Counted from the stretch's first letter, positions 3,591-63,813 are shown. The stretch is 64,000 nt of DNA from Eledone cirrhosa (GCA_964016885.1 OZ024741.1:178250001-178314000), one strand, 5' to 3'. Notes: generated by a model not told the origin, from the sequence alone. A program made the numbers and translations.

Positions 3591-4022
3591 TATATATATA
3601 TATATATATATATATATACATTTAATAATTATATATTATATTTAAAAATTATATATATATATATATATATATATATATATATATACATATATATATATAT
3701 ATATACATATATATATATATACATATATATACATATATATATATACATATATATATATACATATATATATACATATATAAATGTATATATACATATATAT
3801 ATATATACATATATATATACATATATATGTATATACATATATATATACATATATACATTTATATATATATACATATATATATATGTATATATATATATAT
3901 ATATATATATATATATATACATATATATATATATATATATATATACATATATATCTGTGTATATATATATATATATATATATATATATATATATATATAT
4001 ATATATATATATATATATATAT
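3591..4022. repeat. (TA)n/(TATACA)n microsatellite
   Basis: Read directly; explains the YIYI ORFs. Confidence 0.97.
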
Positions 4023-4079
4023 AATTGAAAGAGTGAAGAATAACATGGTCAACAGTACAAAAAAGGGGAATTTATTTAC

Positions 4080-4187
4080 AGTCTAACAATTGTTTCTCTG
4101 ATTGAGTTGTCTAAAAATTGCTGAACGCTAGAAGCAGTGCCACTCAATTTTAAAAACGATGCTACCTCAATCATGTCATCAGAGACT
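4080..4187 (-). ncRNA. Type I hammerhead ribozyme with long stem II (inverted pLTR copy)
   Basis: Reverse complement: agtct CTGATGA catgattgag...ctcaatcaga GAAAcaattGTT agact; stem I agtct/agact, palindromic stem III acaattgt. Confidence 0.7.
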
Positions 4188-5594
4188 TTTATAAAAAAAT
4201 ATATAACCGGCAAATCTACAAATTCAAATTACAGCATCAATAATAATATTAGTAATAAAGATAGAGAGAGAGAAAAAGAAATAAAGAGAGATAGATAAAG
4301 GAAAGAAAGAAAGAAAAAAGAAAAAGAAAAAGAAAAAGGAAAAGGAGAAATGAAAACAGAGAAAGATATAGAGAGAAAATAGTTGTACAGAAAAAGGATA
4401 GAGGAGAAATGACGTAAGAAAAAAAGAAAAAGAGGAAAAATAATGATATCAACAATAATTGAATAACTGTTAATACATTCAAATATAGTATACCTATGTT
4501 CTATGAATTCAGGTAGCTGGAGAATTTAAGAAAAGGTGGTATGTCCATCGACACTTTAAGAATAACAGGAAGCTCATAAATACAACAACTCGCGCCAATA
4601 AAATCTGGCAACTCAGAGATGCAAACGTGGAATATAAAATCAGCTGGACGAAGCTATCACAGCTATGTCCCACTGTGATCTTTGTAATATGCAACTTTTC
4701 CAAATTTTATTTACAACAAAATGCTACTTAAGAGTAAAATTAAAAGAACTAGGCATAAAACGGCGACCAAATTTTAGAACTTTAGACCAGCTTAATTCTT
4801 CTTATCTGTTCCATAACCCAAATTGTACCACTTAGATCTATTATAACATCACATCATCATCATCATTGTTATAATTGTCATCATCTATCAACATCAAAAC
4901 CTCTTATACTTACATTCTCTATTTCTCTCACTAAATTTATTTCATCTCTGGCATTTTATTATATCTTGTATCATTTTCACTTCGAATATAACATACAACT
5001 AATTAATAAAATAATTAATTAATTATATAATTAATTTATTAAAATAACCAATACACACATAAATATATTTAACATTATCATATTTATACCTTCGCATCTC
5101 TCTATAGTTTAACCACTTTCATTAATCTTAATATGTTTAAATTTCTTCGCACGTTTTTACTTATTTATTTTGATATTTTGATATTTCATATTTTGTATCA
5201 TTTTGTATCGTACTCGATGTAATTTGTTTATTTATTCATTTATTTATTTACATTTATTAACATTTATTAACATTTATTTACATGTATTAACATTTATTCA
5301 TTTATAGTTGATATCATTATTTTCCCACTTTTTCTTTTTTCTCTTACGTCATTTCTCCTCTATCCTGTTCTCTCCTCTATCTCTCCTCCTTTCTCTACAT
5401 CTTTTTTTCTCTATATATCTTTCTCTGTTTTCATTACGCCTTTTTCTTTTTCTTTTAATTTTAATTTTTTTCTTTCTTTCCTTTATCTATCTCTCTTTCT
5501 TTCATTTTTTCTCTCTCTCTATCTTCATTACTAATATTATTATTGATGCTGTAATTTGAATTTGTAAACTTGCCGGTTATATATTTTTTATAAA

Positions 5595-5702
5595 AGTCTC
5601 TGATGACATTATTGAGCTAGCATCGTATTTATAATTGAGTGGCACTACTTCTAGTGTTCAGCAATATTTAGACAACTCAATCAGAGAAACAATTGTTAGA
5701 CT
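5595..5702 (+). ncRNA. Type I hammerhead ribozyme with long stem II
   Basis: agtct CTGATGA(5600) ...attgag...ctcaat... GAAAcaattGTT(5697) agact. Confidence 0.7.
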
Positions 5703-6283
5703 GTAAATAAATTCCCCTTTGTTGTACTGTTGACCATGTTATTCTTCATTTTTTCAATTTTATAACTCCAAGATAAACTTACATAGGAATACAGGTTAAA
5801 TCATAAACTCGTCACCTATGTAAACCTCTTGTCTTGTTGAGTCAAACAAAGCCGTACGCTAAAACTATTCATAATAAGAAGTATTCACAACCTCTAACTG
5901 GATAACCTATAACGATATTTTGTTATCCCTTGTATATATATATATATATATATATATATATATAGAGAGAGAGAGAGAGAGAGAGAGAGAGAGAGAGAGA
6001 GAGAGAGAGAGAGTGGGGAGGGGGGTAGAACACTGGAAGTTCACCATACCGAGAACAATTATTTCACCTTAGCGGATATATATATATATATATATATTTA
6101 TTTATTAAAATAACAGATTAAAGTTTAAGCAAAGAATCGCTGCTTTCACCACTTAACGAGATCTTCTGAATGATAGGTTCTATCTTAGTATAAAAGTTTA
6201 AGCAAAGAATCGTGCTTTCCCCCTTACTGAGCTCTCTTTGGATTTTAGTCTTCAAATTTATTATTATTACTATATATATATAA

Positions 6284-6468
6284 GGCGGTGGATTGGCAAT
6301 ATCGGTAGAGGTTCGGACGCCATGCTTTCCAGCATAATTACGTCCCTTTACGATCTGAGTTCAAATCCCGCCGAGGTTGACTTTGCCTTACGGGGTCGAT
6401 AAAATAAAGTACCAGTAATGTACTGGGTAATTGCTGGCCTTGTGCCTAAAGTAGAAACAATTATTACT
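6284..6468 (+). mobile_element. tRNA-derived SINE (octopus-like family)
   Basis: A-box-like tggcaatatcgg, B-box gagttcaaatccc, core ggggtcgataaaataaagtaccag, (ATT)n tail; many copies in window. Confidence 0.85.
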
Positions 6469-60789: not shown

Positions 60790-62289
60790 TTCCCTTGCTT
60801 TTATCGAGAATCTAATTGTAATACGTGACGTATTCTATTCTATAGCGATTAGGTCTTCAAAATGTTTATTATAAACATACAGAATATTTTCGAATATTCT
60901 ATGTCTATATTCACATATATATCGCTATTTCAGAGCATTTATTCCAATTCCTAATTTCTGCCGGACCGGCAACCGCTCTTTCAAACCAGTTCCTGTACAC
61001 AGCTAAGTATTCTATAAGTCTCTAGCTGTGTCATTCTCGATAAAAGCACTGGATATGTAGTCCTGATGAATTCTAACAAGAATGAAACGCGTAGATTACT
61101 TCCCTTGCTTTTATCGAGAATCTAATTGTAATACGTGACGTATTCTATTCTATAGCGATTAGGTCTTCAAAATGTTTATTATAAACATACAGAATATTTT
61201 CGAATATTCTATGTCTATATTCACATATATATCGCTATTTCAGAGCATTTATTCCAATTTCTAATTTCTGCCGGACCGGCAACCGCTCTTTCAAACCAGT
61301 TCCTGTACACAGCTAAGTATTCTATAAGTCTCTAGCTGTGTCATTCTCGATAAAAGCACTGGATATGTAGTCCTGATGAATTCTAACAAGAATGAAACGC
61401 GTAGATTACTTCCCTTGCTTTTATCGAGAATCTAATTGTAATACGTGACGTATTCTATTCTATAGCGATTAGGTCTTCAAAATGTTTATTATAAACATAC
61501 AGAATATTTTCGAATATTCTATGTCTATATTCACATATATATCGCTATTTCAGAGCATTTATTCCAATTTCTAATTTCTGCCGGACCGGCAACCGCTCTT
61601 TCAAACCAGTTCCTGTACACAGCTAAGTATTCTATAAGTCTCTAGCTGTGTCATTCTCGATAAAAGCACTGGATATGTAGTCCTGATGAATTCTAACAAG
61701 AATGAAACGCGTAGATTACTTCCCTTGCTTTTATCGAGAATCTAATTGTAATACGTGACGTATTCTATTCTATAGCGATTAGGTCTTCAAAATGTTTATT
61801 ATAAACATACAGAATATTTTCGAATATTCTATGTCTATATTCATATATATATATATATATATATAGGAAAATGTATGAATCCGACAGCAGAGCTCAAGCC
61901 GTTTCGACGGCTATTTCTAAACTAAATTATAATTTTTACCGTGTTAAATAAAAAGCCGAACTTTTCAAGGGGTAATTCCTTATATGGGAAGATTGTAGTT
62001 TTCAAGAGGACTGGTGCGTTATGGTCCATCTGGTTCCTTACCACAACTGCTTCTTTATATATATATATATATATATATATATATATATTTCTGAGGACGG
62101 CATGTATATGTGAAGCTATGTATATTTCCTCTGATAATTTGTAATATTTTTACATAGATCTATATGATATACATACCAACACACATATACATCCCGGAAA
62201 CGATCGTAAATTGATGATTTTTTTAATATAAGGAACTTGTTCTTTGTTTTTATTTCATTGTTTATATTAATTTATATATATATATATGT

Positions 62290-62865
62290 AGAAGGCGAGT
62301 AATAGTGTAGAACAATAAAACTATGCATACATTACATAAGTAGCACACAACACTTGGTAGAACTGGAGTATATATTAAAGAAAAAATTAGAAGATGGTTA
62401 AAGAAGTTCCATATATTTTATTATGCGCATTTCGAAAACAACATCATCCTGGGACAACAATTGTGTTGTCATCAGATAAAATAAGGTAACATGATATGAC
62501 GCCTAAAAACCCATGTCAACAAGAAATGTAGACTGCACACTTTCTTGTTGACATGTGTTTTTAGGCCTCATATCATGTTACCTTATTTTTTCTGATGCGA
62601 ACATAATTTTTGTCCCAGAATAATGTTGTTTTCGAAATGCGCATAATAAAATATATGGAACATCTTTAACCATCTTTTAATTTCTTCTTTAATGATATAT
62701 AGACTGGACACTTTCTTGTTGACATGTGATTTTAGGCCTCATATCGTGTTACCTTATTTTATCTGATGAGGACACAATTTTTGTCCCAAGATGATGTTGT
62801 TTTCGAAATGCGCATAATAAAATATATGGAACTTCTTTAACCATCTTTTAATTTCTTCTTTTATA
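62290..62865. mobile_element. ~170-bp pLTR-like unit: one inverted copy with tail plus two direct copies, each with an HHR-like motif
   Basis: 62378-62530 (-), 62538-62692 (+), 62709-62862 (+); ttttat CTGATGA...gttttc GAAAtgcgcATA ataaaa at 62757-62822. Confidence 0.8.
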
Positions 62866-63373
62866 TACGTATATATATTATATATATATTATATATATTT
62901 TATATATATACATATATATATATATATATATATATATATATATATATATATATATATATATATATATATATATATATAATATATATATATATATATATAT
63001 ATATATATATATAATATATATACATATATATTTATATATATATATATATATATATATATATATATATATATATATATATACATATATATGTGTGTGTGTG
63101 TGTGTGTGTGTGTGTGTGTGTGTGTGTGTGTGTGTGTGTGTGTGCGTTTGTGTGTGATATATATAATATATATATGTATATATATAATTTATATACACAT
63201 AGTAATAATAATAAATTTGAAGACTAAAATCCAAAGACGGCTTTGATAAGGGTAAATATATATCAAATATATGAGAACCCTAGAGCAAAAATATATATGT
63301 GTATATTTATATATAAATTAAACACACACACACACACATGCTTACGCACGAGTACGAGTATAGCTCTTTTTAC

Positions 63374-63595
63374 AAAACGGTTTTTTCCCATTTCAGGTAG
63401 ACTTGCTCCATCATCCACTTTTCTAAAAAATAAATCATACACAAAACGCCTGCATCAACAGTTTTGCAAGAGATGTCAACATGAATGAATTTGTTATTTT
63501 TATCTCAGGACATTTTTTCCAATTCCATCCCGCCCGTCCCCTTAATCTATCTTATTTCTCATTCTTTCTTCTGATGAAGGACTAGCGTCCGAAAC
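63374..63595 (+). mobile_element. pLTR-like unit of the 16.4 kb family, HHR cut off after GAAAC
   Basis: tcttctgatgaaggactagcgtccgaaac at 63567-63595, then unrelated sequence. Confidence 0.75.
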
Positions 63596-63676
63596 ACTAT
63601 ATAGATATAGTGGTAGAACACTGGAAGGTAATATCCGTAGTGGTAGAGCACTCAGTCCATGGGACGAGTTAGGTAG

Positions 63677-63813
63677 AAGTGGTTACACAACAGTTAGTTC
63701 ACCATACCGAGGACAATTGTTTCACCATTAGCGGATCCTCAGCGCGAGGTGAGGATCCACTAAGGTGAAACAATTGTTCTCGTTATGATGAACTAACTGT
63801 AGTGTAACCACTT
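63677..63813. repeat. Fold-back hairpin with HHR 3' half; related fragment at 6026-6078
   Basis: aagtggttacac..gttcaccatacc..acaattgtttcacc..ggatcctca / tgaggatcc..ggtGAAAcaattGTTctcg..gtgtaaccactt. Confidence 0.8.

Follow-up and report, generated by a model that had tools for sequence, protein, structure and literature searches.

Hammerhead-bearing fold-backs of Eledone cirrhosa as probable back-to-back insertions of Hydra-clade Penelope-like elements and their non-coding dependants

Hydra-clade Penelope-like elements (PLEs) are recognised by features that include RW(K/R) and DKT motifs, a CxCX5C linker and the absence of CCHH (Craig et al. 2021, PMC8557442), and one of them, Hydra-1_Obim of Octopus bimaculoides, combines a hammerhead ribozyme (HHR) with a preference for (TA)n (PMC8557442). 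Minimal HHRs number 2,000-9,000 per genome in fluke, coelacanth and frog (PMC4209133), and the largest hammerhead count that we located in print is the 126,247 of the axolotl (PMC7229834). Retrozymes are cut by their HHRs and accumulate as circles (PMC7229834), and for the non-LTR retrozymes a circular template with PLE helpers has been proposed (PMC7229834; 10.64898/2026.07.22.740005). In vitro, the protein of the Poseidon PLE PAc cleaves AT-rich DNA on both strands, extends each of them and begins copying at two internal RNA positions that delimit its tail (Frangieh et al. 2024, PMC11167929). Here we analyse a 64,000-nucleotide stretch of Eledone cirrhosa (GCA_964016885.1 OZ024741.1:178250001-178314000; hereafter the window, with positions counted from its first letter), 64% A+T and rich in (TA)n tracts, most of whose large fold-back repeats we judge very probably to be Hydra-clade PLEs and their non-coding dependants, inserted as paired 5'-truncated copies back to back in a TA repeat by dual-strand priming.

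These insertions are assembled from parts of known kinds, namely a Hydra PLE, a minimal HHR and a non-LTR retrozyme. With the Hydra clade (PMC8557442) they share the C-terminal GIY-YIG domain, the 3' HHR, (TA)n targets, the inverted 5'-truncated copy and the tail, but instead of one cephalopod family there are many, with about 1 kb of 3' untranslated region (UTR), tails reaching ~170 nt, stems II as long as 97 nt and U3-A8 or U4A cores. Their ribozymes resemble the minimal PLE hammerheads (Cervera and De la Pena 2014, PMC4209133) in the type I fold, the palindromic stem III, the extra nucleotide after A9, the U3-A8 variant and the occurrence of opposite-strand pairs 100-700 bp apart; the number estimated here is far above the published thousands, and the accessible text of that study does not describe a consistent divergent orientation or a coupling of short and long ends. 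The tandem unit of 310 bp found in the window falls within the 170-400 bp of non-LTR retrozymes (Cervera and De la Pena 2020, PMC7229834; 10.64898/2026.07.22.740005), carries a type I HHR as they do and shares with axolotl HHR_Amex2 a U.U at the foot of stem II, whereas its back-to-back pairs, PLE-type short and tailed ends in (TA)n and single haplotype per insertion set it apart; no description of inverted arrays was located in the accessible parts of those two texts. PAc (PMC11167929) offers cutting and extension of both strands, two tail-defining start sites, AT-rich targets and a predicted dimer, all of which the present system would share, but has no strand preference between its start sites in vitro, whereas the genomic arrays here use one site per arm.

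The first-pass annotation of the window had described most large fold-backs as hammerhead-bearing. After removal of four pairs of short interspersed element (SINE) or other dispersed repeats, 18 local fold-backs remained, 15 of them from HHR families; a recognisable core is, however, kept in only 10, and many arms are coreless. The other five consist of ends of HHR families that were truncated within the ribozyme or downstream of it, and three fold-backs, at 6857, 43161 and 56069, are unrelated to these families. Two families looked HHR-free in the window: the one at 16716 has a U3-A8 core upstream in copies elsewhere, and the one at 25896/51447 has its hammerhead upstream in a ~565-bp unit found elsewhere.

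The geometry of the insertions was followed in the window and in a genome sample of 94 stretches of 10 kb, taken at even intervals from 27 large scaffolds (939.8 kb in total), six further positions having fallen outside contigs. Hammerhead-fold motifs sit 20-200 nt upstream of a TA junction, and (TA)4+ occurred within 200 nt downstream of 60 of the 75 sample motifs (background, 23%). Same-family pairs on opposite strands were divergent in all 11 cases, at 8 places, and never convergent. Furthermore, the tail is borne by one arm only, the other stopping at a short site, in 10 of 11 scorable window pairs (family E being the exception; the family J fold-back and F were not scored) and in 31 of 33 pairs of the HU family. 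Ends are complementary at the central joint of the fold-backs, and HU centres differ between copies, clustering 10-20 nt upstream of the GAAA block.

PLE coding sequence in the window consists of two open reading frames (ORFs) with PLE reverse transcriptase (RT) or endonuclease (EN) sequence and of two remnants (Table 1). The linkers of the ORFs, CNCTYADNC and CNCLNKEAC, read by eye, are of the CxCX5C form, and CCHH is absent. Intact relatives exist as stop-free frames of 713 aa (L306/L307), single ORFs with RT and C-terminal GIY-YIG EN to which the window ORFs are 53% and 32% identical. L306 bears RLRWRAF and SDKTG (RWR, and DKT in place of DKG), motifs past which the window ORFs are truncated, and CDLC and CKH late in the EN (CxxC and CxH, read by eye). 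Because the motifs of window and relatives match the published definition (PMC8557442), the window ORFs are assigned to the Hydra clade on that basis. Neither Pfam nor NCBIfam recognised them; a genome protein search returned 64,290 first-look candidates. A complete insertion (L073) runs from a TA repeat through an inverted, untailed 3' end of 180 nt, a truncated RT-EN, a 1.2-kb UTR, an HHR and a tail into TA again. For families C and G we discarded the possibility of unrelated elements nested as RT ORFs, since the nearest relatives of these ORFs (L114) carry C-type and G-like ribozymes; judged by these relatives, C and G arms appear to belong with the ORFs that they enclose. The RT at 17677 goes with the C arms; the adjoining D hammerhead is a separate inserted piece.

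A strict descriptor of the type I hammerhead found 15 motifs in the window, against a mean of 0.02 and a maximum of 1 in 200 local dinucleotide shuffles. With a relaxed version, which tolerates a mismatch at the foot of stem II, an additional nucleotide following A9, U4C and longer stems, 21 motifs were found (mean 0.1, maximum 2, in 100 shuffles; none in the reversed sequence), so that the excess over shuffled sequence on which the first-pass annotation had staked its reading is evident. The core CUGANGA...GAAA...UH with stems I-III is present in these 21 motifs, although U4A and U4C copies do not strictly conform to the type I core; truncated or mutated copies (63571, 45417) fail. Rfam missed nearly all of them, since its scan of the window yielded only the motifs of the 310-bp array, at a sub-gathering score (HH9, 23 bits, E 0.32), and otherwise TA-repeat microRNA noise. 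Individual sites had been placed correctly to within about 10 nt, except that at 47706 the wrong GAAA had been picked, the true motif ending at 47637. They differ in quality: 45074 is intact but its partner 45414 carries G8A, the motifs at 46495/46755 and 51175 are present with U4C cores, those at 4080/5595 are present with mismatches at the stem II base, and the sequence at 63567 stops after GAAAC and is left without a cleavage site. Moreover, about 14 families are present instead of about ten, the U3-A8 and U4A core families having been overlooked. Degenerate hammerhead-like cores also lie at 50435 and 53168, in 3' UTRs behind Hydra EN regions, and fail the descriptors.

In the genome sample the relaxed descriptor detected 75 motifs, or 80 per Mb (bootstrap 52-112), with none in each of five shuffles and one in the reversed sequence. 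A second descriptor with U3-A8 added detected 80 (57-116 per Mb; 1-3 false matches per shuffle), and U4A motifs contributed 10 more, with none in a shuffled half-sample. Scaled to 3.0 Gb, these densities of about 80-95 per Mb suggest about 2.5 × 10^5 motifs in the genome (range 1.6-3.5 × 10^5). As a check on scaling, six sample motifs of family D predict about 19,000 copies and 19,894 were counted, while for HU 14 sample motifs compare with 20 expected. Four tight exact patterns set a lower bound of 43,424 (D 19,894, U4A 15,732, HU with core 5,270 and the 310-bp unit 2,528), and reversed patterns gave 0 throughout. The very large load foreseen from the window is therefore real as a load of motifs, but the window is about four times denser than the sample average. 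We found no survey of hammerheads in octopus or other cephalopods, and two cephalopod repeat papers mention Penelope but, in their accessible parts, not ribozymes.

The sample motifs vary widely around the common fold. Their stem III insert is strictly palindromic in 52 of 75, as in dimer-acting HHRs, and the stem II region spans 50-97 nt in 18 of 75. Two subfamilies of family P, with its ~565-bp unit, swap C3-G8 for U3-A8, and a U4A core (CAGAAGA) belongs to the Hydra family with the 713-aa frames (15,732 exact 34-mers; the first 100 listed all have A). HU has 64,446 exact 19-mer copies, about 92% of them without the core, their breaks clustering inside stem II. We predict that the ribozymes cleave, probably as dimers or when assisted by proteins. 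A tandem array of 556 bp with an HHR in its units (L089:4212-9766, nine motifs) exceeds the usual retrozyme unit length.

The 310-bp retrozyme was counted genome-wide by exact patterns. It is a non-coding tandem unit, each copy with an intact type I HHR (2,528 exact 43-mers in arrays), and its circular fold is more stable than those of shuffles (z -4.2). There are 995 exact tail-TA junctions in the genome; among 66 examined, 14 run off the stretch and 49 of the 52 others have an inverted partner arm, one of the three partnerless arrays abutting an assembly gap. Partner arms end at the short site in all 39 visible cases, and all 48 TA-flanked arrays with both ends visible have one arm at each of two fixed sites. 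Nine of nine TA-flanked pairs picked by their ribozyme and not by their ends follow the same rule; a tenth pair, in a non-TA target (L181), has trimmed ends and an apparent 10-12-bp target duplication, and two further loci are single-armed. Arm lengths range from 80 nt to 6.3 kb and vary separately, the short-end arm being the longer in 20 of 48, which rules out snap-back copying of one complementary DNA (cDNA). Truncation exactly at the cleavage site was likewise discarded, since two arms near unit position 1 run 3-7 nt beyond it and, of 66 HU ends, no more than 4-5 fall close to it.

Units within one insertion are nearly identical (single-unit changes, 0.06%), and 71 arrays resolve into 28 haplotypes whose variants are fixed throughout the units read, including those of the second arm wherever the sequence of both arms was available. 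Within the ribozyme, none of nine fixed variants hits the 11 core positions and stem I pairs are kept, compared with 3 of 15 single-unit changes at the core, all small numbers. Because units are near-identical within each insertion yet 28 haplotypes coexist, frequent monomer bottlenecks are needed, which a circular template would supply. This youngest family looks likely to have been copied twice, once per DNA strand, from one circular RNA, as far as its genomic copies indicate. The tandem joint of the unit also occurs in four contig sets of unrecorded kind, which fits circle or tandem DNA alike. The back-to-back array ends are structural evidence for PLE mobilisation of retrozymes. A second tandem family (L069, L093, L092, L096, L247, L258), apparently with its own U3-A8 hammerhead, resembles the 310-bp unit, at about 75% identity, nowhere but near the two 3' end sites; the region in common may be a recognition module for a helper protein.

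In the mechanism that we propose, the element protein most likely cuts both strands of a symmetric (TA)n target and reverse-transcribes from each. Each strand would be primed at one of two fixed internal RNA start sites, both cDNAs would stop early, often inside ribozyme helices, and their ends would anneal through self-complementary RNA parts before repair. For the 310-bp family the template would likely be one HHR-cut, circularised monomer copied round and round; arrays of any length would then hold one haplotype because they derive from a single circular monomer.

Several observations weigh against this account. With PAc in vitro, neither start site is favoured on a particular strand and insertion proceeds without the HHR (PMC11167929), and a helper PLE of the 310-bp unit was sought and not found. 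The short/long rule is broken by family E, by a J tail fold-back with two long arms and by 2 of 33 HU pairs, and one array (L239) mixes haplotypes, with 2 of 16 units differing, which suggests a template switch. Overlaps of at least 6 nt at the array junctions speak in its favour, occurring in 15 of 58 cases versus 0.4% for random joins, but the contrast is inflated by comparing mismatch-tolerant BLAST matches with an exact-match baseline. Covariation within families, whose absence would have undone the first-pass interpretation, supports the account in family I, where it is strong (41 two-sided changes versus 14.5 in shuffles, 0/500 as high), but is weak in family C (14/500 shuffles for percent paired, 147/500 for pair count), by a shuffle control that ignores the relatedness of copies. 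Finally, for 12 of 13 motifs the predicted fold does not improve on that of shuffled sequence (z above -2), and the U4A core of the intact-ORF family and the U4C cores of F and G copies imply that some motifs may be inactive.

The last of these points bear on the alternative that survives best, although we consider it rather unlikely: that the motifs are PLE ends but mostly non-catalytic relics, their structure kept for protein binding or RT pausing. The U4A core of a family whose ORFs are intact (15,732 exact copies), a core kept in only about 8% of HU copies (5,270 versus 64,446), the weak folds and the poor in vitro cleavage of published minimal PLE HHRs (PMC4209133) would all suit relics; yet the core letters are kept across about 14 families with stems little alike in sequence, C3-G8 and U3-A8 replace one another, an exchange of importance to the catalytic fold, and fixed retrozyme variants avoid the core. 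Such relics concern catalysis only and are compatible with the insertion mechanism.

Less probable still, and in our view unlikely, is a common PLE origin followed by growth of the arrays in place, with short back-to-back ends arriving first and lengthening later by unequal crossover or slippage, or by copying of long linear transcripts of existing arrays without any circle. Local amplification is discussed in a retrozyme preprint (Li et al. 2026, 10.64898/2026.07.22.740005); homogeneous arrays are expected under concerted evolution, there is a weak correlation between the lengths of the two arms (rho 0.32, p 0.025), and PAc insertion needs no HHR cleavage (PMC11167929). Nevertheless, 14 of 96 arms fall short of a single unit, the distribution of lengths is continuous, private variants are common to both arms, 0.06% divergence leaves little time for two expansions per locus, and a linear multimer offers no simple route to fixing new variants in every unit. 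That the palindromes are miniature inverted-repeat transposable elements (MITEs) or DNA fold-back elements that move as units, with old PLE ends included by chance, is highly improbable, for although HU micro fold-backs are short, very numerous and clustered in their centres, and three window fold-backs are not PLE-derived, the centres vary by copy, one arm exceeds the other by a fixed tail, the fixed length and equal terminal inverted repeats of a MITE are wanting and the same ends flank kb-long RT-EN ORFs (L073). Insertion by Hydra-clade PLEs, in turn, agrees with the enclosed Hydra RT/EN, the divergent arms, the 3' ends in (TA)n and the PLE tail, and bears out the earlier view of MITE-looking palindromes as PLE products.

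Table 1. Features of the window related to PLEs and hammerheads (signs in brackets give the strand of the motif or arm).
Feature	Position	Strand	Details
Family A back-to-back insertion	4024..5933		HHR 4182-4086 (-), 5600-5696 (+); 78-nt stem II, basal mismatches; GIY-YIG remnant about 4510-4730; ~170-nt tail on right arm
Two truncated 3' pieces, U4A-core family	6076..6225	-	Intact 713-aa Hydra ORF elsewhere (L306-L309)
Family B solo 3' end	16378..16697	+	Minimal HHR 16581-16608; extra nt after A9; stem III = CG palindromic
HU-family micro fold-back	16713..16907		Both arms cut inside stem II, no core; tail on right arm
Family C back-to-back insertion	16948..20235		HHR 17075-17037 (-, tailed), 20177-20215 (+, short); encloses 5'-truncated Hydra RT
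Hydra-clade RT remnant	17677..18968	+	Ends in CxCX5C linker; EN missing; 53% identical to intact L306 ORF
Family D 3' piece where EN expected	18969..19175	+	HHR 19078-19132
Family I back-to-back insertion	23196..24958		HHR 23293-23245 (-), 24771-24819 (+, tailed); stem II covaries
Family J fold-back	24979..25280		HHR 25074-25030 (-), 11-bp stem II
Family J tail-only fold-back	25428..25705		Both arms long; breaks short/long rule
Fold-back of ~565-bp tandem family (P)	25793..26190		Cut downstream of HHR; left arm tailed
Family K solo end	26590..26950	-	HHR 26835-26770
Family E fold-back	44876..45693		Intact HHR 45151-45078 (-); G8A in right copy; arm ends alike, against short/long rule
Family F fold-back	46174..46986		Cores with U4C; stem I of 3 bp, stem II long; SINE-like repeat at 46285-46492 interrupts left arm
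Family G back-to-back insertion	47594..51444		HHR 47747-47637 (-), 51179-51289 (+, tailed); 92-nt stem II
Family A tail-only fold-back nested in G	48280..48546		No core
5'-truncated Hydra RT-GIY-YIG ORF	49087..50298	+	CxCX5C linker, no CCHH; then TA/TG-rich 3' UTR, G hammerhead
Second family-P fold-back	51609..51915		Same ~565-bp tandem family as at 25793..26190
Broken Hydra EN and 3' UTR	52123..53433	+	EN 52123-52529; I-type HHR 53346-53381 before (TA)n
Family A solo end	53686..54002	-	HHR 53844-53748
310-bp retrozyme double array	59502..61843		Minus and plus arrays meet at 60528/60529; 7 identical HHRs; minus array 3.3 units, tailed end at unit position 165; plus array about 4.2 units, short end at position ~130
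HU-family insertion	61863..62055		Minus arm with U3-A8 core; tail on plus strand
Family D fold-back	62287..62862		171-bp tandem right arm; cores 62475 (-), 62591 (+, degenerate), 62763 (+)
Family B end and family H fold-back	63370..63812		B cut after GAAAC; abutting H truncated through core and stem I

Other repeats surround these insertions. A very abundant SINE-like repeat of ~210 bp occurs at 6260-6480, 33659, 43470, 43670, 46285, 54378 and 57856 (146 BLAST matches in 940 kb), and at 43161-43471 two of its ends make a non-PLE fold-back in which the flanking DNA is mirrored too. The 99-bp hairpin at 6780-7030 lies within a non-PLE element whose ends are, presumably, Helentron-type-HINE-like. 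An isolated hairpin of 66 bp (56069-56134) lacks TA flanks and has no copy in the 940-kb sample. Two decayed tandem copies of a long interspersed element (LINE), about 69-71% alike, occupy 28000-39700 with APE endonuclease and RT fragments, and an open LINE endonuclease frame of 558 aa at 3-1676 on the minus strand adjoins a composite 98-bp/~600-bp tandem repeat at 1933-3590. No host exons were recognised in the window among the 56 of 92 candidate frames scanned.

The first-pass annotation had proposed that, if transcribed in introns, the fold-backs would form long double-stranded RNA and be potential ADAR substrates; the one hint of editing that emerged here concerns the retrozyme RNA. The 28 fixed substitutions, read on the ribozyme strand and polarised only against the majority letter, comprise 10 A>G versus 3 T>C (p 0.02; tests chosen after seeing the data). 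The share of A>G is higher among fixed (10/28) than among single-unit changes (8/70; p 0.0075), whereas the contrast of A>G with T>C against singletons is not significant (p 0.07). One change, A276G, recurs on four haplotype backgrounds in a UAG context, which is a preferred context of ADAR, and 8 of the 10 A>G sites are predicted A-U pairs in which G still pairs. In these genomic copies the A>G lean hints at editing of the retrozyme RNA template; selection on structure or polymerase error could also explain it, because pairing is kept, polarity is limited and the tests were post hoc.

Our literature searches gave no match for the scale of the hammerhead load, the long stem II, whole families with U3-A8 or U4A, or strictly coupled back-to-back retrozyme arrays. 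Some of the variants may already be covered by the work of Luense et al. (2017) on PLE hammerhead variants. The origin of inverted and tandem PLE insertions is open in the literature, as is whether animal retrozymes spread by circles and PLE proteins or grow in place; both questions can be addressed with genome and RNA data, given about a thousand near-identical insertions that each have two fixed ends and a single haplotype. In addition, the genome offers a broad natural collection of hammerhead variants (long stem II, U3-A8, U4A), and repeat pipelines probably call such palindromes MITE or unknown. Only tentatively do we put forward the broadest proposition, that E. cirrhosa has one of the heaviest hammerhead loads known, a transposing U4A-core family included, together with dimer-primed, two-site copying of one self-cut circle that is edited from adenosine to inosine (A-to-I) before copying. 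If that were true, A-to-I editing of circles would be written back into the genome.

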